Assembly (NCBI GenBank): GCA_024400115.1
Contig: JAKSNF010000015.1
Coordinates: 13,158 to 53,157 of the forward strand
Source of the DNA: Paludibacteraceae bacterium
Lineage (GTDB): Bacteria > Bacteroidota > Bacteroidia > Bacteroidales > Paludibacteraceae
Length of the DNA stretch: 40,000 nucleotides
Direction of reading: 5' to 3'
Below are positions 3,101 through 37,450 of this stretch, piece by piece. Every line of letters starts with the position of its first letter. Position 1 is the stretch's first letter. The notes under the pieces are model-generated. The model was not told where the DNA came from. It was given only the letters and a program-made list of their open reading frames with translations, and searched no databases. Both the position numbers and the translations under genes were made by a program.

Positions 3101-4624
3101 ATGAAAAAGCATACATCATACATCATACATCATACATTGGTAATAGCATCTATGCTATTAATCAGTTCTTGTTCGTTCCTCGATATTAATGTGGAGAACC
3201 AACTTCCGGCAGCGGCGGTAGATTATACGAATACATCCGATATGTATTCCCCCGTAGTGGGCGTATATGCTAAGTTGCGCTTCCCGGGTTGCCACTGGAT
3301 CAATCAGATGCTATGGACGGGACGCGATGAAGATATGACCTCGGGTCGAACCGATGACCAAGCCGAAGCACTCCTCTATAGTTATCGCGGTGGGTATCAG
3401 AACCCTAACTCGTTCTGGGGACTGCGTAACGTGTGGGTAACCCTGTACGATATTATTCGCACATCTAACTCTGCTTTACAGTCATTAGATGAATATGCCC
3501 AATATATCACCGACCATAACTCCCAAGACTATGCCGATTACCTCCAATACCAAGGGGAAATCAAGTGTATGCGGGCTTGGGCATACTTCATGATGGTCAC
3601 CTCTTTTGGCCCTTGTCCGCTCCTTACCGATAATGACCAACAAGACTACACCCGCTCCACGGTGGAACATGTCTGCGACTACGTCATTGCTGACCTTGAA
3701 GCCTCTATCCCCCATATGACAGCCGCTTATCCGGGCGAGATGCCCCACCAGGGTGCTTTCACTAAATACACGGCAGAGGCATTAGCCGCTCGTTTTGCTA
3801 TGCTCAAAGGCGATTGGCAGAAGATGCAAGACCTAACGGCGGATATCATTGGTAGCAGTAAGTTTGAATTAGCTTCCTCCACCAACGACGATTACTATAA
3901 CCTGTTTAAGATTCCGGGTAAACTCTGCCGCGAGAGCCTGATGGAGGTACAAGTGACGGATTACGGACAGCAGTCCGGCGATTACATCGGTGTTGATCAG
4001 TGGTTCGTTTGTCAAGGCGGAGAAGTGAGGAGCGCAGACAAAACAATCAATATCGCAGGTTGGAAATTCTGCCGCTTCAATCCGAATTTTGTTGCGTGGG
4101 CAGACGAACGGGGTGAGAAAGCCCGTCGCGAAGTTAGTTTCTTGGTAGGCGGAGAGACGCTACGCAATGGCTGGAAAGTGGCATTAACAAAGAAAGTGAT
4201 TTTTAATGCTAAGGCTTATATCCCTTATGAACAAATGACCGGTTCGGCAACCGAGTTTGGACGGAATAATAATGTGCGCTTACTTCGTTATGCTGAGGTG
4301 CTACTTATGAATGCGGAAGCCTCTTTCCGCTTGGGTAATACAGATGCCACTTTCCTCAATCAAGTACGTGCCCGTGCAGGATTAGCTCCCGTGGCTGCCT
4401 TAACTGAGGATATTATCTTAGACGAGCGTCGTATCGAACTTAGTGCTGAATGGGGACTACATTACGTGGATCTCGTTCGTACAGGTCGCGCAGCGCAAGT
4501 GCTCAACCAAGAGTCACTCACACGCGATTATGCCCCCGGACAATGGACCGAGGATAAGAAATACTGGCCTGTACCCGGAGAGGTACTCGCCGAATTACCC
4601 GAACTGGCTAACGAACCCAAGTAG
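3101..4624 (+). CDS. SusD/RagB-like outer-membrane lipoprotein
   Basis: 507-aa ORF directly after the SusC-like gene. It has a lipoprotein signal ending LLISSC. C-terminal motifs NNVRLLRYAEVLLMNAEA and DERRIELSAEW are typical of the SusD family. Confidence 0.88.
   Translation: MKKHTSYIIHHTLVIASMLLISSCSFLDINVENQLPAAAVDYTNTSDMYSPVVGVYAKLRFPGCHWINQMLWTGRDEDMTSGRTDDQAEALLYSYRGGYQNPNSFWGLRNVWVTLYDIIRTSNSALQSLDEYAQYITDHNSQDYADYLQYQGEIKCMRAWAYFMMVTSFGPCPLLTDNDQQDYTRSTVEHVCDYVIADLEASIPHMTAAYPGEMPHQGAFTKYTAEALAARFAMLKGDWQKMQDLTADIIGSSKFELASSTNDDYYNLFKIPGKLCRESLMEVQVTDYGQQSGDYIGVDQWFVCQGGEVRSADKTINIAGWKFCRFNPNFVAWADERGEKARREVSFLVGGETLRNGWKVALTKKVIFNAKAYIPYEQMTGSATEFGRNNNVRLLRYAEVLLMNAEASFRLGNTDATFLNQVRARAGLAPVAALTEDIILDERRIELSAEWGLHYVDLVRTGRAAQVLNQESLTRDYAPGQWTEDKKYWPVPGEVLAELPELANEPK
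3110..3137. repeat. Heptamer tract (CATACAT)x4, inside the SusD-like signal peptide
   Basis: Four perfect units starting 9 nt after the ATG. Translated as HTSYIIHHT. Confidence 0.95.
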
Positions 4625-4625
4625 T

Positions 4626-4688
4626 GTTTAGAGTTTAAAGTTGAAAGTTTAAAGAAGCCGTCTAGTTGTATAGTTTAGAGTTGAGAGT
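4626..4688. repeat. Composite intercistronic element E1: GTTTAGA-type units + AGCCGTCTAG + GTTTAGA-type units
   Basis: Sequence: GTTTAGA GTTTAAA GTTGAAA GTTTAAA G-AAGCCGTCTAG-TTGTATA GTTTAGA GTTGAGA GT. It lies between the SusD-like stop and the GH144-like start. Confidence 0.9.
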
Positions 4689-5991: not shown

Positions 5992-8900
5992 ATGAAACAC
6001 AATTCATCATTACACCATTACATCAATTTATCATTAATCACCCTTCTACTCCTCTCCGGCTGCCAAAGCAAGGAGGAGCGGTTCGTCAATAACCTTATGA
6101 GTCAGATGACCTACGAAGAGAAACTGGGTCAACTCAACCTCTTGCCCGTCAATGGCGACATCGTCACCGGTGCCGAAGTGGGCGAATACGACCTCGGCGA
6201 CCGGATAGCCAAAGGTGAGGTCGGAGGACTATTCAACCTCAAGGGCGTAGATAAGATTCGCGAGGCACAACGCATCGCCGTTGAACAATCGCGTCTCGGT
6301 ATCCCTTTAATCTTCGGTATGGATGTTATTCACGGTTATGAGACCGTCTTCCCTATTCCACTCGCTCTGTCCTGCTCGTGGGACACCGCAGCTATTCGCC
6401 TCTCGGCTCAGACTGCCGCCAAAGAGGCTACCGCAGATGGTATATGCTGGACTTTCTCGCCGATGGTAGATATATGCCGTGATGCCCGTTGGGGACGCAT
6501 TGCCGAGGGTAATGGCGAAGACCCGTTCTTAGGTTCGGCTATCGCCCAAGCGATGGTAAAAGGTTATCAGGGAACTGACCTCACGTCACCTTATACGATG
6601 TTAGCTTGCGTTAAGCATTTTGCCCTTTATGGTGGAGCAGAAGCCGGACGCGATTATAACACGGTCGATATGAGTCCCTACCGCATGGCGAATGATTACC
6701 TGCCGCCTTATAAAGCCGCTCTTGATGCCGGTTGCGGTTCGGTGATGGCTGCTTTCAATACGATCAACGGCGTTCCCTGCCACTGCAACCAATGGTTACT
6801 CACGGACTTACTCCGCAAGCAATGGGGTTTTGAAGGTTTTGTCGTAACCGACTATACAGGTATCTTAGAACTCATCGCTCACCGTATGGGAGCCGATCTC
6901 GAGACAGTGGGGCAACGCGCCTTACAAGCCGGGTGTGATATGGATATGGTATCCGAGGCACTGAATATGAGGCGACAGGCAACAGGCGACAGGCGACGGG
7001 TTGAACAGGCATGCCGCCGTGTGCTGGTTGCCAAGTACCGTTTAGGTTTATTCGATGACCCCTATCGCTACTGCGACGATAGTCGTCGTGCCACCGATAT
7101 CTACACGGAGGCAAACAAAGCCCAAGCTCGCCACCTCACCACCGAGACCTTTGTCTTATTAAAAAATAGTCCTTCAGCCACACCATCCACCATCCACAAT
7201 CCACAATCCACACTCCCCCTGTCACCGACAGCCAAGGTCGCCCTTATCGGTCCTCTTGCTGACACGCGTGCGAACATGGCAGGTACATGGTCAGTTGCGG
7301 CTACGTTTGATTATAAGACCGTTCGTGAAGCCTTTGAGGAAATGTTGCCTAAAGGACATTTCTTCTATGCTAAGGGTTCAAATATCGAGTATAGTAAAGA
7401 ACTACAACAGCGGGGTGAGTTAGCCGGTCGTTCTATTTGGGACGAGCGTTCGCCCGAACAGATGCGTCAAGAAGCGATGGCTGCTGCCCGTAAGGCAGAC
7501 GTTATTGTGCTGGCTATGGGTGAGAGTTCGGAGATGTCAGGTGAGAGTGCTGCTCGCACGAGTCTGACGATGCCCAAGGCGCAACAAGACCTCATCGACG
7601 CCCTCGCCACGCTTAATAAACCGATGGTACTACTCAATTTCTCGGGGCGTCCTGTGGTATTGACCCATGAGGCAGAGGTGTGTGACGCTATTCTGCAAGT
7701 ATGGTTTGGCGGGTCGGAGACGGCAGATGCTATAGCAGATGTAGTGTTTGGTAAGGTTAGTCCGTCGGGCAAACTGACGACTTCTTTCCCGCGCAGCGTA
7801 GGGCAAGAGCCACTCGGCTATCGCCAGTACTCAACGGGTCGCCCGATAGAGGATGGTGAGTTCATTAAGTACCGTTCCGGTTATCTGGACGAGAACACCC
7901 TACCCCTCTACCCCTTCGGTTATGGACTCAGTTATACTACCTTCAACTACTCCAATATCACCCTACACCCCTATACCGGTGTCGCCGAAGCGACCCCTAC
8001 CCCCCTACTCCCCTACTCCCTCAATCTTACGGTAACGAACACGGGTAAGATGGCCGGAGCAGAGGTAGTGCAGTTATATGTACGTGCCCATCACTCGACG
8101 TGGGCTCGTCCTGTACGTGAATTACGCGGTTTTGAGCGCGTTGAGTTAGCGGCTGGTGAGAGTAAAGAGGTAAGTTTTGCCATTACAAACGAGACCTTAG
8201 GTTATTACGATGATAAGATGAACTTCATCGTAGAACCCGGCATATATGACATCTTTATCAATGACCTATTCGTGGGACAAGTAGGCGAGAAACAAACCCA
8301 TCTCTACACACTTACCAATAGCAATGGCGTGCGTGTAGATATAACCAATTTCGGAGGACGCATTGTGTCTCTTTGTGTACCTGATAAAAAAGGACAATTA
8401 CAAGACGTTGTTTTAGGCTTTGATAACATCAAAGACTATGAGAATATCCCCTCCGACTTCGGTGCTTGCATCGGTCGTTATGCTAACCGCCTAAACAAAG
8501 GACAAATAACCGTTAACGGCGTACAATATCAACTACCCACCAATAATTTCGGGCACACCCTGCATGGTGGTCCTACGGGTTGGCAGTACCAAGTCTATGA
8601 GGCAGAACAAATAAGCGACCAGTGCCTCAAACTGACTATCGTTTCTCCTAATGGGGATAATGGTTTCCCCGGTCAAGTGACGGCTTCTTGCACCTATACA
8701 CTGACGGAAGATAACACGCTGGTTTTAGACTATGAAGCCACCACCGATGCGCCTACGGTTATTAACATGACCAACCACACATACTTCAACCTCAATGGTG
8801 ACGGAAGTACATCTATTCTCAATAATGAGTTATGGCTTAATGCCGACCAAATGACCCCTGTCGATAATACATATATGACTACGGGTGAGATAGTAACCAT

Positions 8901-10662: not shown

Positions 10663-10666
10663 AATA

Positions 10667-10719
10667 GTTTAGAGTGGAGAGTTTAGAGTGTAGAGTAGCC
10701 GTCTAGTTTAGAGTTTAGA
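10667..10719. repeat. Composite intercistronic element E3: GTTTAGA-type units + AGCCGTCTAG + GTTTAGA units
   Basis: Sequence: GTTTAGA GTGGAGA GTTTAGA GTGTAGA G-TAGCCGTCTAG-TTTAGA GTTTAGA. It lies between the MATE ATG (10662) and the peptidase-like gene, whose last codons and stop it encodes. Confidence 0.9.
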
Positions 10720-11171
10720 GGTAAATAAGTGTGTCTGTATATTTTTAGTAGGTAGCGGCGGAAGGGTTTGAGAAGGCGCCAAAGGCGACCTTTGGTAAGG
10801 GGTTTCTTATGCCCCTTGGGTGAACGTATCTCAATGACTGTTCCTAATATATCTTCTGAAGAACAATGCTCGTACCCTTGCAGGTTGCCGTCACCCTGAA
10901 GGGTGATTGAATTATGAGTTATGAATTTTGAATTATGAGTTATGAATTGTTTAACAACGCGGTGGAGGATGTAGCGGTCGGCGATGTGGGCGAGGACGAT
11001 GTCACCTACAGCGATGGTGGGTTTCTTGATAAGGGTGACGGAGTCCTTGCCACCCTCAATAAAGGGACGCATACTAACGCCACGAGGGGTGAAGATAACC
11101 TCCTTACCCTCCTTGAGTAGGCGTTCTATTTCCTCTAATAATATATCACTTTGTACTGCCGGCATGAGCAA
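10683..11171 (-). CDS. S24/S26-family serine peptidase-like protein
   Basis: 162-aa ORF. GVSMRPFI (Ser nucleophile context), GDIVLA and ILHRVV resemble signal-peptidase/LexA-fold peptidases. It overlaps the upstream gtrA-like gene by 26 nt. Its C-terminus and stop lie inside a repeat element. Confidence 0.55.
   Translation of the reverse strand: MLMPAVQSDILLEEIERLLKEGKEVIFTPRGVSMRPFIEGGKDSVTLIKKPTIAVGDIVLAHIADRYILHRVVKQFITHNSKFITHNSITLQGDGNLQGYEHCSSEDILGTVIEIRSPKGHKKPLTKGRLWRLLKPFRRYLLKIYRHTYLPLNSKLDGYSTL
10908..10949. repeat. Heptamer tract (TGAATTA/TGAGTTA/TGAATTT) x6, inside the S24-like CDS
   Basis: Six units, 42 bp or 14 codons. Translated on the minus strand as QFITHNSKFITHNS. It belongs to the AATTCAA family. 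Confidence 0.95.
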
Positions 11172-11649
11172 ATGAAAAATACTTCTGACAGAAGAACGAA
11201 ATAATAACAGTAATAACAGTAATCACCATCTTACTGGGCGTAGGATACCAAGCAAGAACATCGACACAGAGTTTAAGTCCGAAATAGTTAATTGCCAAAT
11301 TGATAGCCACAACCAAACAATAACGAATAAACTGCTTCCTTGTTTTTATATCCGATTGGGTGAAAGTGATATGTTTATTTAGCCAAAAACCGGTAAGAAG
11401 GGTAATAGGGAAGACGATGCACAATGACGCTATATGAGGCGTCATTGTGATAGTTGAGAGTGGAGAGTTGAGAGTTATTAACTCGTGACCGATGACGAAA
11501 TTATAGATGATAAAGTATAAAATCCAGTCGAGGACCATGTTTCCACCACCACACATTCCGTAGGTAAAAAGCTGTTTTGGCACCCATTTTTGGAATGGAT
11601 GATAGAAAAAATCAATGATTTTTGTAATTATTTGCGCTATTTTTTGCAT
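11146..11649 (-). CDS. GtrA-family membrane protein
   Basis: 167-aa ORF with 4 hydrophobic segments. FTYGMCGGGNMVLDWILYFIIYNF and the C-terminal layout fit the GtrA-like family. Confidence 0.7.
   Translation of the reverse strand: MQKIAQIITKIIDFFYHPFQKWVPKQLFTYGMCGGGNMVLDWILYFIIYNFVIGHELITLNSPLSTITMTPHIASLCIVFPITLLTGFWLNKHITFTQSDIKTRKQFIRYCLVVAINLAINYFGLKLCVDVLAWYPTPSKMVITVITVIISFFCQKYFSFAHAGSTK
11453..11480. repeat. Heptamer tract GTTGAGA GTGGAGA GTTGAGA GTTATTA, inside the gtrA-like CDS
   Basis: Read directly from the sequence. Translated on the minus strand as ITLNSPLST. Confidence 0.9.
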
Positions 11650-11748: not shown

Positions 11749-12561
11749 ATGCAAACAGTACGTGCAAAAAAATACTTAGGTCAGCATTTTTTGAAGGACC
11801 TCAATGTCGCCCGCAAGATTGCTGAGACCTTGACCGAAGGACCCGTTTTAGAAATAGGTCCGGGTATGGGTGTTCTTACCCAGTTCCTACTTCAAAATCC
11901 TAATATTGACCTCACGGCTATCGAAATAGACCGCGAGAGTGTGGCTTATCTCCACGAGTATTATCCCGAACTCAAACTTATTGAGGGCGATTTTCTTAAA
12001 CTGGATCTCAATAAAGTATTCCCAACAGGCAGTTTTTCGGTGATAGGCAATTATCCGTATAATATATCCAGTCAGATATTCTTCAAGGTACTTGAATACC
12101 GAGAACGTATCCCCGTTTGTTCGGGTATGATACAAAAAGAAGTGGCAGAACGACTGGCTTCTAAACCGGGCAAGAAAGAGTATGGTATATTATCCGTTTT
12201 ATTACAAGCGTACTATAATATCGAATATCTCTTCACGGTGGACGAATATGTTTTTGCCCCTCCGCCCAAGGTGAAATCGGCCGTTATTCGCTGCACACGA
12301 AACGAGCGACAGTCATTAGGATGTGACGAAGAACTATTCAAACAAGTAGTGAAAACGGCCTTTAACCAGCGACGAAAACAGATGCGAAACTCCTTGAGAG
12401 TTGAAAGTTTAAAGTTAAAAGTGGAAAGAAGTTGGATAGAAGATAGTGAAAAGTTAAAAGAATTCTATTCTGACCCTATTTTTAACAAGCGACCAGAGCA
12501 ACTGAGTGTAGAAGAATTTATTGAACTAACCCTTAAAATTGAAAAACTATGTCAGAAGTAA
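11749..12561 (+). CDS. rsmA: 16S rRNA (adenine1518/1519-N6)-dimethyltransferase
   Basis: 270-aa ORF with [21 protein letters not shown] (SAM-binding motif), [11 protein letters not shown] and [12 protein letters not shown] consensus promoter lies upstream. Confidence 0.92.
12393..12427. repeat. Heptamer tract CTTGAGA GTTGAAA GTTTAAA GTTAAAA GTGGAAA, inside rsmA
   Basis: Read directly from the sequence. Translated as [12 protein letters not shown]. Confidence 0.9.
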
Positions 12562-17086: not shown

Positions 17087-17979
17087 TGAGTACGTTCTTG
17101 CTCATATTATTTACCCTAATGTCTTACAATGTGGAGAACTTCTTCCACCCCGAACACGATTCCTTAAAGAACGATTATGAGTTTACGGTCGATGGCACTC
17201 GCCATTGGTCTTATACTCGTTATAACGCCAAAGCAGAAGCAATTGCGCGTGTTATCGTTAATGCCGGCGAACTCAATAACCCACCGACCCTCGTAGGTTT
17301 ATGCGAGGTAGAGAACGAGGCGTGCTGCAAGAAACTGACTTATCTGCTCCGTAATTGTCAATACGATTATGTTCATTACGAGAGTCCCGACGAGCGAGGC
17401 ATTGATGTGGCTATGCTGTATCGAAAGGAGCAGTTTGAGGTACTTTCTTCGCGACCGGTGAGGGTGTGGCTTGATTCGCTTACGCACACGCGCGATATAT
17501 TATATGTAAAAGGAGTAGTCAATAAAAGCGATACCCTTCATCTGATGGTCTGTCACTTGCCCAGTCAATTAGGCGGCACACAAGCCTCTGCGTGGAAGCG
17601 TGCCGCAGCGAAGAAAGTGATACAAGGTCTGACGGATAGTATTTACACTATCCATCCGCAAGCCAAGATTATAGTGATGGGCGATATGAACGGCGAACCC
17701 ACGAACGATATACAAGGGCTAACCAACGCGATGGTTGGAACCAAGATGATGAGTTATAAATACAAAGGTCTTTGGTCGTGTATCGATCAGTTTTACCTCT
17801 CGCCTGCTATAGATAGTACTGCCACAGTTCGCGTCTTTGACGCTGATTGGTTACAAGAGGAAGACACCAAATACTTGGGTCTTAAACCTAAACGTACTTG
17901 GGTGGGGTATAGATATCAAAAAGGTGGCTTTTCAGACCACCTTCCTATATTACTCTACACCCTAAACTCTACACTCTAA
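17086..17979 (+). CDS. Endonuclease/exonuclease/phosphatase (EEP) family protein
   Basis: 297-aa ORF. The ATG shares one base with the sufS stop (TAATG). Motifs SYNVENFF, GLCEVEN, GDMNG and FSDHLPI are present. The last codons and the stop lie in a heptamer tract. Confidence 0.82.
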   Translation: MSTFLLILFTLMSYNVENFFHPEHDSLKNDYEFTVDGTRHWSYTRYNAKAEAIARVIVNAGELNNPPTLVGLCEVENEACCKKLTYLLRNCQYDYVHYESPDERGIDVAMLYRKEQFEVLSSRPVRVWLDSLTHTRDILYVKGVVNKSDTLHLMVCHLPSQLGGTQASAWKRAAAKKVIQGLTDSIYTIHPQAKIIVMGDMNGEPTNDIQGLTNAMVGTKMMSYKYKGLWSCIDQFYLSPAIDSTATVRVFDADWLQEEDTKYLGLKPKRTWVGYRYQKGGFSDHLPILLYTLNSTL

Positions 17980-17982
17980 ACT
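17953..17982. repeat. Heptamer tract CTCTACA CCCTAAA CTCTACA CTCTAAA CT (reverse complement of the GTTTAGA family)
   Basis: It covers the last codons (YTLNSTL) and the TAA of the EEP gene, and also the stop of the convergent COG0523 gene. Confidence 0.9.
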
Positions 17983-19150
17983 ATTCGAGGCACTTATCCA
18001 ACGCTGCCGTAATCGCCTCTTTATCCAAGTGTTGACCGATAAAGACGAGTTTCTGCATTCGGTCGCCATAATAGTCATCCCAGTCGGCTCTGAGGTGTGG
18101 GTCGTGCGCCATCATTCGTTTCAGTTCTTCTTTAGGCATGGTCGCAAACCACCTTCCGGCATCAGACATCTTAATCTGCTTGCCCGCCTGCTCAAAGAGG
18201 TAACAATTATCGTATTCCTCTGTGAAATAAACCATTCCTTTGGCACGAATAACGCCTTTAGGCCAGTGACGCGCCACAAACTCGTCAAATAAACCGAGAT
18301 TCATCGGCTGACGACGATAATAAACAAACGTCCCTATTCCGTATTCATCCGCCTCACCTTCCTCTTCGTTTTCCAATTCGTCATGGTCGTGGTGGTGATG
18401 TTCTTCGTGTCGGTCTTCTATTTCTTCTATCCAAGCGGCACTACCGGCTACTTCGTCAAAATCGAACATACCCGTTCCAATGATACGGTCTAAATCGAAA
18501 TCGCAGTAGTCACACTCGATGATAGCGGCATTGGGTTGTAAGGTACGGATAATCGCTTTTAATCGACCTAACTCATCAGCACTGACTTCACTCACTTTAT
18601 TGAGCACAATGATATTACAGAACTCTATCTGCTGAATAAGCAGATTCTCTATATCGTCTTCTTCCAGATTGGGTTTTTGCAACCCTTCACCACACTTGAA
18701 CTCGTCGCGCATTCGGAGGGCATCTACCACCGTAGTGATACAGTCTAATTTAGGTAGTCCGTCCGTGGCGTATTGCGGAGCCATCGTGGGGATAGAACAT
18801 ATCGTTTGGGCAATCGGAGCGGGTTCGCATATACCGCTCGCCTCAATAACGATATAGTCAAAACAACCCTGTGCCACAAGGTCGTGCAGTTGTTTGACAA
18901 GATCCATCTTGAGGGTGCAGCAGATACAACCGTTCTGCAAAGCCACTAAACTCTCGTCTTGGGAATTAACGACACCGCCTTTTTGTATTAGTTCGGCATC
19001 GATATTAACTTCGCCAAGGTCATTGACTATAACCGCAAAGCGAATACCCTTGCGGTTGGTGAGTATCTTATTCACTAATGTGGTCTTACCACTTCCTAAA
19101 TATCCCGTCAAAAGAAGAACGGGCACTTCATCTATCTTATTATACATCAT
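17981..19150 (-). CDS. COG0523-family (CobW/ZigA/YeiR-like) metallochaperone GTPase
   Basis: 389-aa ORF with P-loop GYLGSGKTTL, a CxCC motif (NGCICCT), and a His-rich stretch (HEEHHHHDHDE) before the C-terminal CobW_C-like domain. Confidence 0.88.
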   Translation of the reverse strand: MMYNKIDEVPVLLLTGYLGSGKTTLVNKILTNRKGIRFAVIVNDLGEVNIDAELIQKGGVVNSQDESLVALQNGCICCTLKMDLVKQLHDLVAQGCFDYIVIEASGICEPAPIAQTICSIPTMAPQYATDGLPKLDCITTVVDALRMRDEFKCGEGLQKPNLEEDDIENLLIQQIEFCNIIVLNKVSEVSADELGRLKAIIRTLQPNAAIIECDYCDFDLDRIIGTGMFDFDEVAGSAAWIEEIEDRHEEHHHHDHDELENEEEGEADEYGIGTFVYYRRQPMNLGLFDEFVARHWPKGVIRAKGMVYFTEEYDNCYLFEQAGKQIKMSDAGRWFATMPKEELKRMMAHDPHLRADWDDYYGDRMQKLVFIGQHLDKEAITAALDKCLE

Positions 19151-19168
19151 ACATTAAACATTATACAT
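19141..19168. repeat. Heptamer tract TATACAT CATACAT TAAACAT TATACAT
   Basis: It covers the NlpC/P60 stop (19161-19163) and the COG0523 ATG-ATG start (19150-19145). Confidence 0.9.
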
Positions 19169-20012
19169 ATCTCCTAATTCCTGCTAAATGATGGGTATAT
19201 CTCCCTAATTCCGCGGAATAAATACCGTGTTCGTCTATTTTCTCTACTTTCACTCGTCCCGAGGCGTGAATAATACGCTCCTTGTCCAGCAATATACCTA
19301 CATGAATAATCTTCGTTTTGCTTGGGTCTTCATTTGCATGGTCAAAGAAAGCCAAATCGCCGCATTGTGCATCCTCGAGTGCTATTTCCTTTATCCCTTG
19401 TCCTTGTTCCTTGTTCATTTGTCCGAGTATCTGTTGTCTCGCCATGCGTGGCAGTCTGATTCCAAAGAGCGAGTATATTGTTTGTGAGAAGCCTGAACAG
19501 TCGATGCCAAGGGCGTTCTTACCTCCCCAGAGGTAGGGGGTGTTGATAAAGAAGCGAACGGTGTTCAGTATATTCTCTTCGGTCATTGCCATCGGTTTCT
19601 CCTGAACCATCTGTGGGTCAATGCGGAAACGCACTCCCAACAAAGAGAACTCTCCGTCTTTGTAGTTAGGCAGTCTCGTTCCGGCAGTAAGAGGAATCGT
19701 CTGACCATTATTCTCACTTACGGCATAAGCCATCGGCATACGCACGCGAGCGCCTTGCATGGTTGAGGTCTGCTCTTTTATTTCTTCCCACTCTTGGTCA
19801 CTAAGGATAGTGAGCATCTTCGTATCCACATAACCTTCTTCTCCGTCATCATCAATGCGGATATGTGTCCATTTACCTGTAGCCAGTAGCCTGTAGCCAG
19901 TAGCCTCAATTATCTCGCACGTTTGTGCAAAGATCATTTGTGTCTCTTGTTCAGCCTCCTCCGCCGGATTCACCCTTACGGGGATAACACTATGTAATGC
20001 AATTCCTTTCAT
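19161..20012 (-). CDS. NlpC/P60 (C40) cell-wall peptidase with an SH3-like N-terminal region
   Basis: Track ORF 19161..20123. I use the ATG at 20012 (MKGIALHS) because the consensus promoter at 20093-20124 lies inside the longer ORF. Catalytic context PYLWGGKNALGIDCSGF and IIHVGI...IIHAS is present. Confidence 0.85.
   Translation of the reverse strand: MKGIALHSVIPVRVNPAEEAEQETQMIFAQTCEIIEATGYRLLATGKWTHIRIDDDGEEGYVDTKMLTILSDQEWEEIKEQTSTMQGARVRMPMAYAVSENNGQTIPLTAGTRLPNYKDGEFSLLGVRFRIDPQMVQEKPMAMTEENILNTVRFFINTPYLWGGKNALGIDCSGFSQTIYSLFGIRLPRMARQQILGQMNKEQGQGIKEIALEDAQCGDLAFFDHANEDPSKTKIIHVGILLDKERIIHASGRVKVEKIDEHGIYSAELGRYTHHLAGIRRYV
19395..19422. repeat. Heptamer tract CCCTTGT CCTTGTT CCTTGTT CATTTGT, inside the NlpC/P60 CDS
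   Basis: Translated on the minus strand as QMNKEQGQG. It lies between the catalytic Cys and His regions. Confidence 0.85.
19876..19903. repeat. Heptamer tract (CCTGTAG CCAGTAG) x2, inside the NlpC/P60 CDS
   Basis: Four units. Translated on the minus strand as ATGYRLLATG. Confidence 0.95.
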
Positions 20013-20602: not shown

Positions 20603-22120
20603 TTATTTTACCTTTTGCCCCATGGGTGTGTAAGTAGCGTTATTGGTCTCTATGAGCAGTTGCCCATTGCGGAGCACTTTGTGCATTGTGCATCGTGCAT
20701 CGTGCACCGACTCTAAGCCTGTTCCACCTGTAGTGCTGAAGTTGCCCTTGTGTTCCGCAAGCGTCTGTCCATCGGCATCGGTAGCGGTCACGTTGTAGTT
20801 GTAGGCAGTACCGGGGTTAAGACCTGTTACCGTAAACTGATAACCTTGTGCAGTAAGCGTTGCTGCCGGTGCTTGGTGTGCGCCATCAGCAGCAGGAGCC
20901 TTGAAGGCGATGTTTACCAACTGTCCTTGGGCATTGAAAGTCAGCACACAAACCGTCTCGCCGTTCTTTGTGATGGTGATCGTGTAGGTGTCTGTGCCAT
21001 CGGTAATCGGCCAAGTGATAGTGACATCTTGGTCGGAGGGAGTAACAATAGGATTCTCATCATCCATAGGTGTAACTTCTGCTGCAATAGGATATAGTTG
21101 CATATTCTTCCAATAATTGGCACTTTGATAATCTGCTAAGGCAGAAGCAGGGACATACACTTTGGCATCTTGACTTATGTTTTTGAAAACATCATAACCA
21201 CATGCTGGTGGAATAATGGCATAACAAGTAATAGATTTTAAACTGGAACAATAATCAAAAGCATATCTTCCAATCGTTGTGACGGAATTTGGAATTGTGA
21301 CCGAGGTCAATCTGTAGCAACTTTCGAAAGCATAACCTCCAATCGTTGTGACGGCATTGCCGATTGTTACAGAAGTTAAACCGGAGCAATGAGAGAAAGC
21401 CCAACTTTCAATCGTTGTGACGGAATTGGGGATGGTTATCGAAGTCAAACCGGAACAATTATAGAAAGCAGCGTTTCCAATTGTTGTGACGGAGTTAGGA
21501 ATGGTGATGGAGGTTAAACGAGAGCAACCAGAGAAAGCCCAGTTTCCAATCGAAGTGACGGAATTAGGAATGGTAACCGAGGTCAAACCAGTACAACCTT
21601 CGAAAACACTCTCTCCAATCGTTGTGACGGAATTGGGAATGGTGACAGAGGTCAAACCGGAGCAACCATAGAAAGCATACTCTCCAATCGTTGTGACGGA
21701 ATTGGGAATAGTGACCGAGGTCAAATTGGAGCATTTATAGAAAGCATAATCTCCAATCGTTGTGACGGCATTGCCGATTGTTACAGAAGTTAAACCGGAG
21801 CAATGAGAGAAAGCCCAACTTTCAATCGTTGTGACGGAATTGGGGATGGTTATCGAAGTCAAACCGGAACAATTATAGAAAGCAGAGTTTCCAATTGTTG
21901 TGACGGAGTAGGTTGTGCTATTGTAAGTAACAGTTTCAGGAATAACGACAGAGCCGAAGTATTCTTTTTCGTAAGACGAGTAAGAAATTCCTCGATATGT
22001 TACTTCTGCCGTCAAATTGGCAGAGTTAAGATTATAATAGATGCCACCGATTTTACAATCGTAAGCAAACAAAGTTGCTGCGCACGTGAGCGCAAAGAGA
22101 AATGTAAATAGTTTTTTCAT
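20603..22120 (-). CDS. BspA-type leucine-rich-repeat surface protein
   Basis: 505-aa ORF with a signal peptide. It has about ten 23-aa repeats (LTSVTIPNSVTTIGxxAFxxCSG), then an Ig/Fn3-like segment and a C-terminal beta-strand tail (KVLRNGQLLIETNNATYTPMGQKVK). That tail may be a secretion or sorting domain. Confidence 0.85.
   Translation of the reverse strand: MKKLFTFLFALTCAATLFAYDCKIGGIYYNLNSANLTAEVTYRGISYSSYEKEYFGSVVIPETVTYNSTTYSVTTIGNSAFYNCSGLTSITIPNSVTTIESWAFSHCSGLTSVTIGNAVTTIGDYAFYKCSNLTSVTIPNSVTTIGEYAFYGCSGLTSVTIPNSVTTIGESVFEGCTGLTSVTIPNSVTSIGNWAFSGCSRLTSITIPNSVTTIGNAAFYNCSGLTSITIPNSVTTIESWAFSHCSGLTSVTIGNAVTTIGGYAFESCYRLTSVTIPNSVTTIGRYAFDYCSSLKSITCYAIIPPACGYDVFKNISQDAKVYVPASALADYQSANYWKNMQLYPIAAEVTPMDDENPIVTPSDQDVTITWPITDGTDTYTITITKNGETVCVLTFNAQGQLVNIAFKAPAADGAHQAPAATLTAQGYQFTVTGLNPGTAYNYNVTATDADGQTLAEHKGNFSTTGGTGLESVHDARCTMHKVLRNGQLLIETNNATYTPMGQKVK
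20681..20708. repeat. Heptamer tract GTGCATT GTGCATC GTGCATC GTGCACC, inside the LRR protein C-terminal region
   Basis: Four units. Translated on the minus strand as VHDARCTMH. Confidence 0.95.
21337..21885. repeat. LRR-coding 69-bp tandem array containing a perfect 135-bp duplication
   Basis: 21337-21471 and 21751-21885 are identical when read base by base. The offset is 414 bp, or 6 x 69 bp. The surrounding 69-bp units are diverged. Confidence 0.9.
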
Positions 22121-30398: not shown

Positions 30399-30743
30399 AT
30401 GTTTTTAACAATACTCAAATCAAAGATTCATCGCGTCAAAGTGACGGAAGCCAATCTCGAATATATCGGCTCTATCACGATAGATGAGGATTTAATGGAT
30501 GCAGCCGGTATTCTTGCCGGTGAACAAGTAAGCGTGGTAGATAACACCAACGGTGCCCGCCTTGAGACTTATGTTATTGCCGGTAAACGCGGAAGCGGTT
30601 GTATATGCATGAACGGTGCTGCCGCCCATCTGATGCACGTTGGTGACACCGTCATTATCATGGCTTACGCCCTTATGACACCCGAAGAGGCGAAGACGTT
30701 TAAACCTATGATTGTTTTTCCGGAAAACAACCTTTTAGTTTAG
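30399..30743 (+). CDS. panD: Aspartate 1-decarboxylase
   Basis: 114-aa [32 protein letters not shown] contains the Gly-Ser self-processing site. The stop TAG lies in the first unit of a heptamer tract. Confidence 0.92.
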
Positions 30744-30791
30744 AGTTTAGAGTTGAGAGAAGCCGTCTAGTTTATAAGTTTAGAGTTAATT
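30738..30791. repeat. Composite intercistronic element E2: GTTTAGA units + AGCCGTCTAG + GTTTAGA units
   Basis: Sequence: GTTTAGA GTTTAGA GTTGAGA G-AAGCCGTCTAG-TTTATAA GTTTAGA GTTAATT. The first unit supplies the panD stop TAG. The element ends 2 nt before the tgt ATG. Confidence 0.9.
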
Positions 30792-31923: not shown

Positions 31924-31930
31924 CTAACCC

Positions 31931-31972
31931 CAGACATTAAACACTAGACACCAAACACCAGACACTAAACAT
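31931..31972. repeat. Heptamer tract CAGACAT TAAACAC TAGACAC CAAACAC CAGACAC TAAACAT
   Basis: Six units, 42 bp. It fills the tgt / lptF-G spacer and ends 3 nt before the ATG at 31975. Confidence 0.95.
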
Positions 31973-31974
31973 CA

Positions 31975-33057
31975 ATGAAGCTTTTCACTCGGCTTGACCG
32001 CTATATTATCTTTAAGTTCTTGGGCACTTTCTTTTTCTCGATAGTGCTTATCCTTAGTATTGCGGTGGTGTTTGATGTGACAGAGAAAATGGACGACTTC
32101 TTTGAGCACCAAGTTCCGCTCCGTGAGATAGTGGTGGATTATTACTTCAATTTCTTCCCCTACTACCTTAATATGTTCAGTTCGCTGTTCATCTTTATTT
32201 CGGTTATCTTCTTTACCTCTAAATTGGCTGGCAATAGTGAGATTATCGCAATGCTCTCTACCGGAATGAGTTATCAGCGACTGATGTGGCCCTATTTCCT
32301 TTCTGCCCTCTTTTTGTGCCTTATGACCTTTTGGTTAGGTGGATATGTTATTCCTAAGGCATCGGGTAAGATGCTTGCTTTTGAGGATAAGTACATCAAT
32401 CAGTTTACTACAGAGCACGCTCGTAATATCCAGATGCAAGTCGAACCCGGGACGGTGTTGTATATGGAGTCCTTCCAATTGCGTACCGGTGTAGGTTATC
32501 GCGTTTCGCTGGAGCATTTTGACGGTAAGATGCTGACGTCCCGTACCACAGCCGATCGTATTCGCCATGATTCGGCTTATAACTGGCACATGGAGAACTA
32601 TGTAGAGCGCAGTTTTGTGGGAATGCGAGAAAACATGGAGAAGGGGTATCGTAAAGACGTGGTTATCCCCATTGAACCGAAAGAACTATTTATCACTGCC
32701 GAAGAGGCGCAACGGATGACCAATCCCGAATTGCGCGAGTTCATGGCTAAACAATCCGCTCGCGGAGCAGGAAACATAGAAGCCTTCAAAACCGAGTGGT
32801 ATAAACGCTGGGCTTCGGCTTTGGGTGCGTTTATAGTCACGCTATTGGGCGTTACTATGTCCTCAAAGAAAGTGAGAGGGGGTATGGGTAAGAATCTCGG
32901 TTTAGGTATTGTGCTCACGGCGCTGTATATCCTTTTCTCTACCGTTTCCACCACTTTCTCCGTTACGGGCGTTATGTCACCCTTCATGGCAGCGTGGTTA
33001 CCTAATTTCGTCTTCTTGGCAATCGGAATAGTGCTCTATATACGCGTGCGCCGCTAA
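31975..33057 (+). CDS. LptF/LptG-family (YjgP/YjgQ) LPS export permease
   Basis: 360-aa ORF. It has the N-terminus LDRYIIFKFLGTFFFSIVLI, three N-terminal TM segments, a periplasmic insert, and three C-terminal TM segments. Confidence 0.85.
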   Translation: MKLFTRLDRYIIFKFLGTFFFSIVLILSIAVVFDVTEKMDDFFEHQVPLREIVVDYYFNFFPYYLNMFSSLFIFISVIFFTSKLAGNSEIIAMLSTGMSYQRLMWPYFLSALFLCLMTFWLGGYVIPKASGKMLAFEDKYINQFTTEHARNIQMQVEPGTVLYMESFQLRTGVGYRVSLEHFDGKMLTSRTTADRIRHDSAYNWHMENYVERSFVGMRENMEKGYRKDVVIPIEPKELFITAEEAQRMTNPELREFMAKQSARGAGNIEAFKTEWYKRWASALGAFIVTLLGVTMSSKKVRGGMGKNLGLGIVLTALYILFSTVSTTFSVTGVMSPFMAAWLPNFVFLAIGIVLYIRVRR

Positions 33058-33065
33058 TTAGAGTA

Positions 33066-35144
33066 TCATAGCGGATCTACATCCATCAGTATTTGTATTG
33101 CTTTGAGATTGGGCAGACTATGAATATAGTCTATTTGTTTTTGTAGTAATGTCTTGGCTTTACTGAACGAAGCGGAGGCTTCTATCCGCAAACGTATATT
33201 CCTTATATATAAATTATTTATACGCTGAATAGCCGGCAAGAGCACTATCGAGCAACGCTCCCCAAAACTCTGTGCCATCAACTGTTGCAGCAAATAGGCG
33301 GCACTCTCCACTTTGGCGCTATCACTATGTCGGAGTGTGACTTCGATAAGACGATAGAAAGGAGGATACTTGAAGGTCTTGCGCTCTTTTATTTCGTTGG
33401 CATAAAGACCTGTATAATCATGGTTCTTGACAAACTCATACACCTCGTTCTTAGGGTCGAACGATTGGATATACACTTGTCCTTCCGTGCCTTTACGTCC
33501 GGCGCGTCCTGCCACTTGTTCCAATAACTGATACGCCCTTTCGGTAGAGCGGAAATCAGGTTGTGCCACAATCTGGTCGGCATTGAGAACAGCCACCAAA
33601 GACACATCGTCGAAATGTAGTCCCTTGGTTACCATCTGGGTACCAATCAGTATATCTACTTCGTGACGCGCGAAGGAGTCAATGATCGTCTGATAATCGT
33701 CCTTGCGACGGGTGGTGTCTAAGTCCATCCGAATTACGCGTGCCTGAGGAAAAAGTTTGTGTACCTCTTCTTCGATACGCTCTGTACCAAAACCGTGTGT
33801 CTTCATTTCTCCCCCACACTCGGGACAAACGGTAGGAAGCGGAATAGTGTGCCCGCAGTAGTGACAAACGAGTTGGTGGGTGTTGAGGTGAACGGTCAAA
33901 CTCACATCGCAGTTGGGACAACGAGGCGGTTGACCACATTGTGTGCATTGTACAAAGGGTGCATAACCACGTCGGTTCTGAAAGAGAATAATCTGCTTAC
34001 CCTTACTTAACTCTTCTTTTATGCGTGTGACCAACGGGTCGGAGAAGTGTTCGTACATCTCCTTGCGATGATACTGCCGTTGAAGGTCAATGAGTTCAAT
34101 CGTGGGCAAGGCTAATCCTGCATAACGCTCCGTCAAGTTCACTAAACCGTATTTGCCGGCTAAGGCATTATGATAGGTCTCTACCGAAGGGGTAGCAGTA
34201 CCTAAGAGCACTTTGGCTTTTTGCTGAGCGGCAGCCATGATAGCTACTGAACGAGCATGATAACGCGGAGCCGGGTCTTGCTGTTTGTACGAAGGCTCAT
34301 GCTCCTCATCTACAATAATCAAACCTAAATTATTTAGGGGCAAGAAAATAGCGGAGCGCGCTCCGACAATTAAATGACCGCTGTCGCTGTAAGACAATAA
34401 TCTTCGGTAGATTTCGACCCGTTGTGCATCTGTGATACGCGAGTGATAGACATAGAGACTATCGCCAAAGTGAGCAGCGAGACGTTCGGTTAGTTGGGTA
34501 GTGAGGGCAATCTCGGGTACGAGATAAAGGACGTTCTTGCCTGCGGCTAAGGTCTGTTCAATGAGGTGCATATAGACCTCCGTCTTACCCGACGAGGTCA
34601 CTCCGTGAAGTAACACCACATCTTTGCTTTGCCACTGCTCTTGTATTGTAAATAAAGACCGTTGCTGCGCAACTGTAAGACCGGGCAAAGCCCTGTAAGA
34701 CCGTCCTTGTAGGACTGAAAGATTCGCTAATGCCCCTTCGGCTGAAGGGTACGTGGGGATTTTGACTCTCCGTTTCTTTTCGGGATCAAAGGAGTAGGTC
34801 TTGTCCATGGCTTTGACAGGTAAGGCTGCGGCAAGCACATCACCGATGGGGCACATATAATAGTCGGATATCCATCGCCATAGTTTGAGTTGGTTTTCCG
34901 TCACCATCGGTTCCTTATCTAAGACACATATAATCTCCCTCAACTTAATCTCGCCTGTCGCCTGTTGCCTGTCGCCAGTCGCCACTATCCCCACTACCTC
35001 TTTCTTCCCTAACGGCACTATAACACGAGTGCCCGGTTGGGGGCACTGTATGCTGTCGGGGACGAGATAGGTGTATGTGTCCGCGATGGCTAAGGGTAAT
35101 ATAACCTCAATTCTCTGCGGCAAGGGCTTTAGCGTAACATGCAC
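33066..35144 (-). CDS. priA: Primosomal protein N' (replication restart helicase)
   Basis: 692-aa ORF with Walker [18 protein letters not shown], a Cys-rich zinc region ([20 protein letters not shown]...CHYCG...CPECG) and GTQMVTKG. The start is uncertain: GTG at 35144 or TTG at 35123. It overlaps the tdk stop. Confidence 0.9.
34951..34985. repeat. Heptamer tract TCGCCTG x2 TTGCCTG TCGCCAG TCGCCAC (reverse complement of the GGCGACA family), inside priA
   Basis: Five units. Translated on the minus strand as [12 protein letters not shown]. Confidence 0.9.
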
Positions 35145-35694
35145 GGCAGAGGGGTTCGTAACTCTCCGTCTCGCCTAATAGAACGCGCTTCTCCGAACTA
35201 ACCAAACGGTGACTAACGTATGCCAAATCACCGCAATGAACGCAGATAGCGTGGGTCTTATACACATCTTCGGCAATAGCCAAAAGGGCAGGCATAGGAC
35301 CAAAAGGAACGCCCTTATAGTCCATGTCCAAACCGGCTACAATAACGCGAATACCGCGATTGGCGAGTTGTTGGCAAACATCAACAATACCCATGTCGAA
35401 GAACTGTGCCTCGTCAATACCGACTACATCAATGCCTTCGGCAAGGAGGAGGATGTTTTGACTGCTATCCACGGGGGTGGATTGAATCACGTTATGGTCG
35501 TGACTCACCACATCCTCGTCCGAATAACGGGTGTCGATAGCGGGCTTAAAGATCTCCACTTTCTGTTTGGCGAACTTAGCGCGTTTCATACGACGAATCA
35601 ACTCTTCCGTTTTGCCGGAGAACATCGAACCGCAAACTACTTCAATACTTCCCTTCCTGCGGATGGGACCTTGTGTGTCTCTTTCACTGAACAT
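35107..35694 (-). CDS. tdk: Thymidine kinase
   Basis: 195-aa ORF with [22 protein letters not shown], and the zinc site C..C...CRAC at the C-terminus. Confidence 0.92.
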
Positions 35695-37450
35695 ATCTTA
35701 TATCTTTTACTCTCATCTCAATCGAGTGTACGCCATTGAAGACGTTCTCTTCCAACTCATATACCACATCTACCTTATTGCCGTTTTGTATATACAAGGC
35801 GGCATCACCCTTACCAAACGCTATGCCACTGATAGCGGCAGTACCGTCGGTCAAATCCAATTTAAGGTGCTCCCCCGTCTTACCGCAGCGTTTGGTATAG
35901 CGGTTATTGACCATGTTTCTGGTCACGAAGAGGGGACGCGGGTTTTCCGGACCAAACGGTTCTAAGCATTGCAGCACCTTAAAGAACTGCGGCGTTATAT
36001 CCTCAAGGGCTATCTCAGCCTCTATGTTTAAGGTTGGTTGCTGTTGCTCAGGCAGTATATGCTGCTTCACATAATCGTCAAAACGAACTTTGAATGCCTC
36101 TAAGTTCGCTTCCGGCAGGGTCAGTCCTGCCGCAAAGAGGTGACCGCCGAACGTTGTCAGTAAGTCCGAACAAGCGTCGATGGCCGAATATAAATCAAAG
36201 CCCTCTACCGACCTTGCCGAACCGGATATAAGACCGTCGCCTCCGCCGGTCAATACTATCGTGGGTCGGTAATAGGTCTCAATCAGTTTACTGGCGGCAA
36301 TACCGACTACGCCTTTGTGCCAGTTGGGGTTATAAACGACCGTTGTATGTTTATGTTCATTCTCGGGGTCTGCTGCCAATTGCTCCAAGGCTTCGGTAGT
36401 AATCGTGTCCTCCTTACCCTTGCGTTCTTGGTTATAGGCATCTACGGCTTGCGCTAAAGCGAAGGACTCTTCAGCATTCTCGCTAAGCAAGAGGTTCACC
36501 GCTTCTATGCCCGATTTCATTCTGCCACAAGCGTTGATACGCGGTCCAATCTTAAACCCAAGGTCGGTAATGGTTATCGTCTGATTAGCCAGTCCCGCTA
36601 CATCTATAATCGCTTTCGGACCTATCTTCGGTCGCTCGTTGAGTTCTTTTAGGCCATAAGTAATCAGTATCCTATTCTCCCCCGTGATAGGCACTATATC
36701 CGACGCTATCGACATAGCGAGGTATTGTAGCAAAGACTGTAAGACCGCTTCGCTGCAGGATTGCTTCGCTGTAAGATATTTTAGGGTATAGGCGCAGCAT
36801 AGTTTATATCCTACTCCGCAGCCGGAGAGGTGTTTATAGGGATAATCGTCATCCTTGCGCTCCATATCGAGTACGGCTACCGCTGCGGGTAGTTCGTCTC
36901 CGGGGGTGTGGTGGTCGCAGATGATAAAATCGATACCCTTGCTCGTGGCGTACGCCACTTTATCTATCGCTTTGATTCCGCAATCAAGTGCAATAATGAG
37001 CGTGCACCCTATCTCTTTGGCGTAATCAATGCCCTTAAACGATATACCATATCCCTCCGTATAGCGGTCGGGGATGTAGTAGTTTAGAGTGGAGAGTTTA
37101 GAGTTTAGAGTGGAGAGTTTAGAGTTTATTAGGTCTTTGAGGAACGTAACCATCAATGTCACAGAGGTGGTGCCATCAACATCGTAGTCGCCATAAATGA
37201 GGATATGTTCGCCCGTCTCGATGGCGCGGTGCAATCGTTCCACGGCTTTGTCCATGTCCTTCATGAGGAATGGGTCGTGCAATTGGTTAAGGTTAGGACG
37301 GATATAAGCGCGAGCGTCATTAGCTGTCGTGAGACCTCTATCTACCAGCATTTGTGCCGATAGATTGGAGATATGCAGTTCTCCGGCTAACTGTTCGCAC
37401 AAGGCCTTCTCCGCCTCCGTCAGTTCCTTTATGTTCCAAACATTATCCAC
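35684..37450 (-). CDS. recJ: Single-stranded-DNA-specific exonuclease
   Basis: 588-aa ORF with DHH motifs ([22 protein letters not shown]) and DHHA1 (GGHLFAAG). It carries a 49-bp heptamer tract translated as [15 protein letters not shown]. Confidence 0.92.
37082..37130. repeat. Heptamer tract (GTTTAGA GTGGAGA GTTTAGA) x2 + GTTTATT, inside recJ
   Basis: Seven units, 49 bp. Translated on the minus strand as [16 protein letters not shown]. It has a 21-bp super-period. Confidence 0.95.

Follow-up and report, generated by a model that had tools for sequence, protein, structure and literature searches.

Dispersed heptamer tandem repeats within recJ and other genes of a Paludibacteraceae bacterium

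Heptamer tracts in recJ, an S24/S26 peptidase gene and rsmA

The 40,000-nucleotide stretch of contig JAKSNF010000015.1 analysed here (positions 13,158 to 53,157, forward strand; assembly GCA_024400115.1, Paludibacteraceae bacterium), referred to as the window, carries short tandem repeat tracts with a 7-bp unit both between and within its genes, foremost among them a tract inside recJ. The gene content is that of Bacteroidales, comprising SusC/SusD, LptF/G, a BspA-type leucine-rich-repeat (LRR) protein and a series of housekeeping genes, and the RecJ protein is 100% identical to the NCBI-named "MAG RecJ [Paludibacteraceae bacterium]"; the host is a gut- or rumen-type Bacteroidales bacterium, represented by a metagenome-assembled genome (MAG). 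Tracts were detected with Tandem Repeats Finder (TRF) and our own period scan, and each was placed on the codon frame of its host open reading frame (ORF). The recJ gene (35684-37450, minus strand) is an intact ORF of 588 aa, in which the DHH, DHHA1 and RecJ_OB domains flank the tract on either side. The tract itself (37081-37128, minus strand) consists of units ACTCTAA and ACTCTCC arranged as an exact 21-bp super-unit repeated 2.3 times, and its 48 bp encode 16 residues in frame. Two further coding tracts are of the same kind. The first (10907-10948, minus strand; units TAATTCA and TAACTCA, an exact 21-bp unit present 2.0 times) encodes QFITHNSKFITHNS within a gene at 10683-11171 (minus strand) that was named S24/S26-family peptidase from homolog names, its signal-peptidase match being weak; the C-terminus of this protein, PLNSKLDGYSTL, and its stop codon are also tract-derived. 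The second, in rsmA (12394-12428, plus strand), reads GTTGAAA GTTTAAA GTTAAAA GTGGAAA and encodes 11 residues.

Because 7 is not divisible by 3, each successive unit is read in another phase, three in all, and an earlier note made from the sequence alone had proposed that variant units sit exactly where the canonical heptamer would give an in-frame stop. Codon-frame checks bore out the underlying readings. The recJ coding strand reads AAC TCT AAA CTC TCC ACT CTA twice, then AAC, such that both stop-phase units are TCTCCAC with a TCC codon in place of TAA; the phase-0 units are CAATTCA and AAATTCA in the S24/S26 tract and GTT GAA and GTG GAA in the rsmA tract; and tracts of the CATACAT, CCTGTAG, AATTCAA and GGCGACA types lie in the orientations that the note assigned to them. 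The word "exactly" fared less well: units at the stop phase are indeed variant, but so are units at harmless phases (TAACTCA in the S24/S26 tract, GTTAAAA in rsmA). The supposed contrast with intergenic copies is likewise weak, as these also hold variants (GTTGAAA at 4626-4654, GTTGAGA at 30738-30758 and AGTGGAG at 10673).

The enrichment test that the note had suggested was run on a clade sample of ~182 kb, with a variant unit defined as one departing from the consensus of its own tract. In stop-type tracts of coding sequences (CDS), all ten stop-phase units are variant, compared to 8/25 units at the other phases (32%), 33/79 in stop-free CDS tracts (42%) and 38/73 in non-coding tracts (52%); the differences among the last three shares are all non-significant. 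The nominal Fisher p of 0.0003 nevertheless tests nothing: a coding tract has by definition an open ORF, and it is this openness that forces variants to 100% at the stop phase. In addition, the recJ and S24/S26 units are not independent, because both tracts are perfect 21-bp repeats (2.3 and 2.0 copies by TRF). With the duplication collapsed, recJ offers one variant among three units, for which chance placement at the stop phase is 1 in 3. Units drawn at random from the non-coding pool would leave the recJ frame open with probability 0.21, rising to 0.46 when the duplication is collapsed to one independent unit. The AGTGGAG variant occurs outside coding constraint (window 10673, L003 21323-21362 and L006 9216-9252, where L numbers denote the loci compared) and makes up 5/35 pooled non-coding units. 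The "variant" units are ordinary repeat-pool material, and the stop-avoidance pattern, although real, is largely tautological and carries no statistical weight; as an argument for secondary addition of the tracts it is circular, draws on duplicated units and cannot bear that conclusion.

These observations also bear on how the stop-free units came about. Of the two alternatives in the earlier note, frame-aware survivorship agrees with the data. The other, insertion and subsequent corrective selection, is at odds with recJ; it would have a pure, stop-containing array enter recJ, rsmA and the S24/S26 gene and lose its stops by point mutation. The ten variants at ten stop-phase positions would agree with this, and constrained units do mutate while staying stop-free, given that the first phase-0 unit of rsmA is GTT GAA in the window and GTG GAA in L128 and L129. 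However, an in-frame stop would leave recJ, priA or rsmA inactive until repair, which is an unlikely route; the change from TCTAAAC to TCTCCAC takes two substitutions where one suffices; AGTGGAG is common in non-coding tracts; and the TCC unit recurs in an identical 27-mer context both outside coding sequence and in numerous other genes (see below). Corrective mutation is therefore disfavoured for recJ, and for the three genes together we judge it very improbable.

Insertion sites, loop hotspots and frame selection

Tandem tracts are far more frequent in the window than chance would allow. Approximately 18 short tandem arrays were found in its 40 kb, compared to ~0.05 in each shuffled window; 16 of the tracts have period 7, and every other period from 4 to 12 is represented by 0-2. 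With 6.9 head-to-tail copies of a 7-nt unit, the recJ tract falls among long simple-sequence repeats (5-11-nt units in at least about 3 copies), and so do the window tracts in frequency and in the copy-number polymorphism between strains described below. The arrays belong to a few dispersed heptamer families, of which AGAGTNN / ACTCTNN (F1) is the largest with 8 window tracts. Across the clade sample, 70 short tandem tracts were counted, 37 of them within ORFs; the period is not divisible by three in 36 of these 37, and 28 are heptamers. By comparison, the relatives L005 and L007 have no tracts across 35.6 kb. In this clade, tandem repeats form a lineage-specific bloom, with periods of 7, 8, 11 and 16 bp, none divisible by three. 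Intergenic spacers in the window are very short and mostly composed of tracts, which also extend into gene ends: the stop codons of PanD (30737-30743), of an endonuclease/exonuclease/phosphatase (EEP)-family nuclease (17971-17979) and of the S24/S26 peptidase (10683-10696) come from tracts, and a further tract starts on the SusD stop codon (4622-4624).

Comparison of orthologous DNA and proteins, which for RecJ drew on the loci of close homologs, places the coding tracts at sites of recurrent length change. Among RecJ homologs of 72-90% identity, lengths extend from 578 to 627 aa, and more distant or outgroup proteins are ~570 aa; in the alignment, the length differences concentrate in four hypervariable hotspots separated by near-invariant blocks. 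The site of the recJ tract is an 8-residue loop in the outgroup and spans 24 residues in the window. Relative to the solved structure 8y30, the tract corresponds to an insertion of ~14 residues that separates the helix after the DHH motif from the YIPDR strand; in the AlphaFold (AF2) model, the predicted confidence (pLDDT) is 82-91 on either side and falls to <50 over residues 112-118. In RsmA and the S24/S26 peptidase, too, the tracts occupy hypervariable indel hotspots bounded by invariant blocks. Specifically, the 11-residue RsmA insert is common to many lineages and missing from 256-aa RsmA homologs, and the S24/S26 peptidase has one internal hotspot in addition to its tract-encoded C-terminal extension. 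The tracts are accordingly secondary additions to pre-existing proteins, a conclusion well supported by these comparisons; here the earlier note is upheld, through outgroup proteins that lack the tracts, loop hotspots and a 21-bp strain indel.

The history of individual tracts can be followed among relatives. The window, L002, L003 and L004, with RecJ proteins of only 77-88% identity, all have CTC TCC ACT CTA AAC TAY at the 3′ edge of the recJ site, and because these four diverged orthologs share TCC, the stop-free unit probably arose once, before the lineages split. Only one 21-bp block is present in L002, against 2.3 in the window, so that the window lineage appears to have later duplicated the block by exactly 21 bp. 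A closer comparison is afforded by L127, a strain ~98.7% identical to the window: the sole indel that separates the two lies in the S24/S26 tract and amounts to a single exact 21-bp super-unit, of which L127 has one copy, and since the difference is an exact 21 bp, in-gene copy number would move in three-unit steps. More generally, non-zero length differences at orthologous tract sites are multiples of three in 12/12 CDS comparisons and in 2/12 intergenic ones (p=7e-5). This multiple-of-3 rule is frame selection acting on a DNA-level process.

A single loop can host unrelated unit families in sister genomes with 85-95% identical flanks. The PriA loop holds GGCGACA, AAAGTGG, GGATTGT or AAAGTTG units, and the loop at the recJ tract site holds ACTCTAA, the octamer AGGCAGAG or ACAAAGG. 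Other RecJ hotspots of relatives carry tandem 16-bp units (CAGCGCAGCGGTCTTT, with recurrent SAQRSFSDSGLSA-type peptides) or 8-bp units. In hotspots 2 and 4 of L001-L006 and L130 (e.g. L130 10001-11821, aa 218-248), the 16-bp unit is read as the peptides SAQRSFSDSGLSA and SCSETVVQRSDLTAQRSCSPK, and in L006 the 8-bp unit AGGCAGAG occurs at three RecJ hotspots and in TopA. The possibility that the relatives' hotspot inserts are palindromes was rejected, as an inverted-repeat search showed them to be 16-bp and 8-bp tandem repeats.

Two functional accounts of the in-gene tracts were weighed against this evidence. The inserts might be adaptive, with peptides of seven-residue period and polar composition (LNSKLST and similar) modulating protein function in the role of flexible linkers or disordered segments. 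Their positions in loops and linkers would suit this account; the tandem repeats of Borgs make disordered regions under selection (PMC9879509); and the conservation of the RsmA insert across lineages makes an adaptive function possible there. Against it, identical DNA families fill intergenic spacers and gene ends, unrelated unit families and hence unrelated peptides occupy one loop in sister genomes, and relatives and outgroups function without the inserts. Periods are, furthermore, almost never multiples of three, as a DNA-level process predicts and opposite to protein-level selection (all Borg in-ORF units are divisible by three). As an explanation of the tracts at large, adaptation is improbable. 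Even less can be said for phase variation, in which gain or loss of one 7-bp unit would switch genes on or off. Simple-sequence repeats in ORFs with units that are not multiples of three are the classic basis of such contingency loci (PMC4692102), but the hosts here are housekeeping genes (recJ, priA, rsmA, topA and tgt neighbours), the arrays are short and imperfect, the single strain-level change seen is 21 bp and keeps the frame, and the CDS length differences follow the multiple-of-3 rule throughout. We regard it as extremely improbable, and the assignment to phase-variable contingency loci was rejected, these being defined by single-unit switching out of frame, typically in surface or virulence genes.

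Dispersal of repeat modules and their possible origin

Beyond local changes in copy number, longer segments that include tracts recur at separate loci. Three window copies of a composite, in which an F1 tract is followed by the core AGCCGTCTAGTT(T/G) and then by more F1 units, compare with 0.29 expected (4622-4669, 10666-10720 and 30737-30774). All three are on the plus strand at gene ends, and since local slippage cannot yield three composites, tract-bearing segments must disperse. The first has the core AGCCGTCTAGTTGT and runs from the SusD stop codon onward into the intergenic spacer; the second, with the core AGCCGTCTAGTTTA between an F1 tract that includes the AGTGGAG variant and a second F1 tract, covers the S24/S26 stop codon and the spacer ahead of the MatE gene; and the third, also with core AGCCGTCTAGTTTA, supplies the PanD stop codon. 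At the orthologous sites in L129 and L130, both from GCA_045598805, the core is kept with one mismatch and the heptamer arms differ.

Dispersal is also evident outside the clade. Among the matches listed, AGAGTNN arrays occur in >119 genome stretches from many phyla (Planctomycetota, Acidobacteriota, Clostridia, Nostoc and Thermodesulfovibrionales among them), with 38/150 tracts spanned by long ORFs, including those of P-type ATPase, Mfd, MutL, CarB and PPTase. Such arrays, again among the matches listed, often lie in frame within conserved proteins as the stop-free AGAGTTG, read QLSTLNS. The exact recJ 27-mer, TCC included, was found in 48 metagenome stretches (L131-L178), where 22 copies read NSKLSTLNS and another 4 are read from the opposite strand; of the rest, 19 lie in non-coding DNA and 3 at the ends of contigs. 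The copies represent at least 13 distinct gene contexts, with six confirmed unrelated families (ECF sigma factor, phosphoglucomutase (PGM)-family mutase, CobT, DsbD, MutS2 and heavy-metal P-type ATPase), and ~12 non-coding contexts; as with the Rickettsia elements discussed below, in-frame copies are thus dispersed among unrelated genes. The recJ module is, in addition, intergenic in L002 and L003 and present in a Bacteroidaceae PPTase. The TCC module has exactly one open frame per strand, whereas its all-canonical counterpart, AACTCTAAACTCTAAACTCTAAACTCT, has none. Neither a viral contig with the 27-mer nor a plasmid with the recJ region was found, and no vehicle for horizontal spread was identified.

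Many of the metagenome 27-mers form the right arm of a ~110-bp hairpin composed of G-strand heptamers, GCTACCGYTGCAG, a loop, CTGCGGAGCGGTAGC and C-strand heptamers (e.g. L138 ~143-169, L156, L160, L162 and L134). These hairpin elements have a GC-rich inner stem and folding z-scores of -7 to -12, and are translated in frame throughout, in unrelated proteins; in the non-coding metagenome copies, heptamer arms likewise surround GC-rich hairpins. At a locus shared by L171, L134 and L169, a ~23-bp deletion inside the hairpin element of L171 closes the upstream frame, which may represent a tract-mediated frameshift or pseudogene, or else an assembly variant.

The hairpins raise the possibility that each tract is a solo arm, or one half left after decay, of a palindromic element resembling a miniature inverted-repeat transposable element (MITE) or the Rickettsia palindromic element (RPE), mobilised by a transposase in trans and with heptamer arrays as its terminal inverted repeats. 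The position of the recJ 27-mer as the arm of a strongly folding element that is translated through in unrelated proteins speaks for this origin, as does the flanking of GC-rich hairpins by heptamer arms in non-coding copies, and RPEs provide the precedent of entering many unrelated Rickettsia genes in frame (PMC10969869). The window itself agrees poorly with it: the window and all eight clade loci lack the palindromic core GCGGTAGCAAACTCT, an inverted-repeat search of the window revealed no inverted heptamer pairs within 400 nt, and the recJ tract does not fold. Neither the three composite sites nor the metagenome copies show a target-site duplication, conserved termini are likewise not visible and no transposase was identified; moreover, the hairpins could equally be secondary, having arisen by inverted duplication of tracts. 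Such an origin is possible and would supply a dispersal route compatible with the explanation favoured below, although it is not demonstrable in the window, and as an account of the tracts we hold it to be doubtful. The narrower notion that the window tracts are themselves hairpin elements was rejected, as they have neither paired arms nor the palindromic core.

Taken together, the tracts are best explained by a bloom of dispersed repeats that is filtered by reading-frame selection and persists in spacers and permissive loops, a reading we consider probable. A DNA-level process would seed and spread tandem repeats irrespective of coding. From the exact 21-bp changes we infer that copy number then shifts by slipped-strand mispairing, for which the three-unit register of 21 bp would be the only step size that keeps the frame. 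Inside a gene, an array can survive only when it spans a multiple of three bases overall and none of its units puts TAA, TAG or TGA in frame; purifying selection removes arrays that shift the frame or add a stop, as is shown by the multiple-of-3 rule and by how stop-free units and orientations are distributed. Survivors would occupy tolerant places, namely short spacers, gene ends, termini, surface loops and linkers, and the inserts would be neutral or selfish. The stop-free unit of recJ would not have been made in place; rather, its 21-bp block appears to be a pre-formed module of the family, already present in the ancestor of the four orthologs. The stop-avoidance pattern as a whole is caused by purifying selection on the reading frame.

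Several points weigh against this explanation. The amino-acid sequence of the RsmA insert is preserved in many lineages, and some inserts could therefore have gained function. The 21-bp change in the S24/S26 tract is not polarised and may be a duplication or a deletion. The clade sample consists of loci and not of whole genomes, every sequence is a metagenome assembly, and translation of the inserts is inferred rather than observed. Lastly, no transposase, target-site duplication or inverted arm adjoins the window tracts. A more far-reaching version of a dispersed bloom is that the tracts are the visible part of a self-propagating repeat system, in which tandem modules and derived hairpins, with a consensus shaped for one open frame per strand, colonise essential genes of rumen and gut Bacteroidales and spread by a copy mechanism that homogenises units (concerted evolution, possibly templated or conversion-like) beyond local slippage; this we think unlikely. 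Were it true, comparing tract-rich sister genomes with tract-free ones could reveal the machinery behind heptamer blooms.

Relation to known repeat systems and remaining tracts of the window

Long simple-sequence repeats of 5-11 nt, notably heptamers, are over-represented in certain prokaryotic lineages with a sporadic phylogenetic distribution, for which polymerase slippage was proposed (Mrazek et al. 2007, as cited in PMC4679880 and PMC4692102). As relayed by the same two papers, repeats in coding regions tend to unit lengths divisible by three, and Bacteroidales are not highlighted. The heptamer excess and slippage as the proposed mechanism are shared with the present case, insofar as that survey is represented there; the differences are that 36/37 in-ORF tracts of the window clade have units not divisible by three, and that they lie in essential housekeeping genes at recurrent hotspots. 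TAACTGA direct repeats were described from Beggiatoaceae, Cyanobacteria and a few Bacteroidetes including Paludibacter propionicigenes, with horizontal spread suspected and with the stop codons in the repeat dictating its orientation and position within ORFs (MacGregor 2015, PMC4679880). Although these are likewise a dispersed heptamer family, mostly intergenic and near gene boundaries, their unit is a different one that carries a stop in each of the three frames and is almost wholly kept out of gene interiors, whereas the families described here include stop-free variants and abound within genes. Other heptamer families are likewise genome-specific, number tens to hundreds of copies and prefer ~4 units; they are the STRR heptamers of heterocystous cyanobacteria, the GGGNATC repeats of Xanthomonas and Nostoc (PMC4692102) and the four-heptamer GGGACCG element of Geobacter metallireducens, which occupies 49 intergenic and intragenic sites (PMC2700814) and so, too, occurs within genes. 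Unlike the G-rich units of those families, for which roles in G4 structure or regulation were proposed, the mRNA strand of the recJ tract has no G and is wholly unstructured on folding.

Selfish DNA dispersed in frame in many unrelated housekeeping genes is known from the RPEs (Ogata et al. 2000, as summarised in PMC10969869). Like these, the window tracts are inserted in frame, translated through and placed at structurally permissive sites, with a consensus that keeps an open frame; RPEs, however, are palindromes of ~100-150 bp in another phylum, and the window tracts are non-palindromic tandem heptamers, only the related metagenome composites being palindromic. In Borgs, every in-ORF unit of the amino-acid tandem repeats is divisible by three, and intergenic units mostly are not (Schoelmerich et al. 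2023, PMC9879509). Both systems have fast-evolving, genome-specific tandem repeats in intergenic DNA and ORFs that give low-complexity or disordered inserts, yet the in-ORF tracts studied here keep frame through a three-unit super-period (21 bp, 7 aa) instead of through unit length, and their families recur at many loci whereas Borg sequences are unique to each locus. The present case differs from known systems in three ways: (i) the dominance of periods not divisible by three in essential genes, (ii) the turnover at hotspots, and (iii) the shared, ORF-compatible module. No description of such repeats in Bacteroidales was found in the literature searched. Assignment to the cyanobacterial STRR, compared through unit sequences of the STRR1-3 type, was rejected, as the host is Paludibacteraceae by SusC/SusD content and homolog names and the units are AGAGTNN, GGCGACA, CATACAT and others.

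Avoidance of stops is itself ordinary, its logic having been published for the TAACTGA repeats. What stands out is a Bacteroidales lineage with repeats of this kind in recJ, priA, rsmA, topA and other core genes, several per gene and at recurrent loop hotspots, contrary to the usual expectation that in-gene units are multiples of three, and one identical 27-nt module read in many unrelated proteins across metagenomes, which offers a bacterial counterpart to the in-frame selfish DNA of Rickettsia. The tracts also pose a mutational hazard, as slippage by 7 bp in an essential gene always shifts its frame. Close relatives that are tract-rich or tract-free provide a natural comparison for the origin and spread of heptamer repeats, a question standing since their first description. 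In practice, the inserts inflate variation in protein length and can mislead ortholog alignment and the annotation of MAGs.

The remaining window tracts lie in genes and spacers throughout the stretch. On the minus strand are the PriA tract of the GGCGACA family (34951-34984), at the loop where relatives carry unrelated families, and a GtrA tract of AACTCTC and CACTCTC units (11448-11476), in which strain L127 has a synonymous change in one unit (CTC vs CTA). A glycoside hydrolase gene of family GH3 has plus-strand tracts of AGGCGAC (6970-6997), of CACAATC / CACCATC (7181-7216) and of the octamer family CCCCTACT (7994-8020), the last between the GH3_C and Fn3-like domains; a further octamer tract, CTACCCCT, lies in the same inter-domain region at 7900-7915, and the octamer family is intergenic in L004, L006 and L129. 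The SusC/TonB-receptor gene carries TCAAAAT units (318-349, plus strand), and SusD carries four perfect copies of CATACAT from codon 4 onward (3110-3137, plus strand; MKK-HTSYIIHHT-LVIAS...), within the expected n-region of its signal peptide. Two minus-strand tracts are found in the NlpC/P60 gene, one of AACAAGG (19396-19416) and one of GGCTACT / GGCTACA with a 14-bp super-unit (19876-19906), and TGCACGA / TGCACAA units occur in the LRR protein (20679-20706, minus strand). The tract at 19139-19168 fills the spacer from the NlpC/P60 stop to the CobW start, that at 31926-31975 occupies the entire spacer between Tgt and LptF/G, and an F1 tract in C-strand orientation (17952-17982, plus strand) forms the last codons and stop of the EEP-family gene. 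Proteins with tract-borne ends vary in C-terminal length among relatives (PanD 114-130 aa).

A structured-RNA role of the tracts was dropped: Rfam covariance models gave 0 matches to the window at the gathering threshold, and folding of the tract regions on both strands was mostly indistinguishable from shuffles (fold z-scores not significant). A promoter and terminator scan around the PanD composite returned nothing over background, and the 40-kb window contains no tRNA genes. Whatever the orientation of the gene, the purine-rich F1 strand is on the plus strand of the window in 7/8 tracts (4622, 10666, 10705, 11448, 12394, 30737 and 37081, with 17952 as the exception; p=0.07), a skew that may reflect a replication-strand bias. 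The preferred F1 unit is also genome-specific, being AGAGTTT/AGAGTGG in the window and L003 and AAAGTTG in GCA_045598805, orthologous sites included (Fisher p=0.025, small sample), which suggests concerted evolution of tract units. Lastly, the BspA-type LRR protein (20603-22120, minus strand) contains an array of a 69-bp (23-aa) repeat at 21240-21907, with 9.7 copies at 76% identity; this is an ordinary protein-level repeat bearing no relation to the heptamers.

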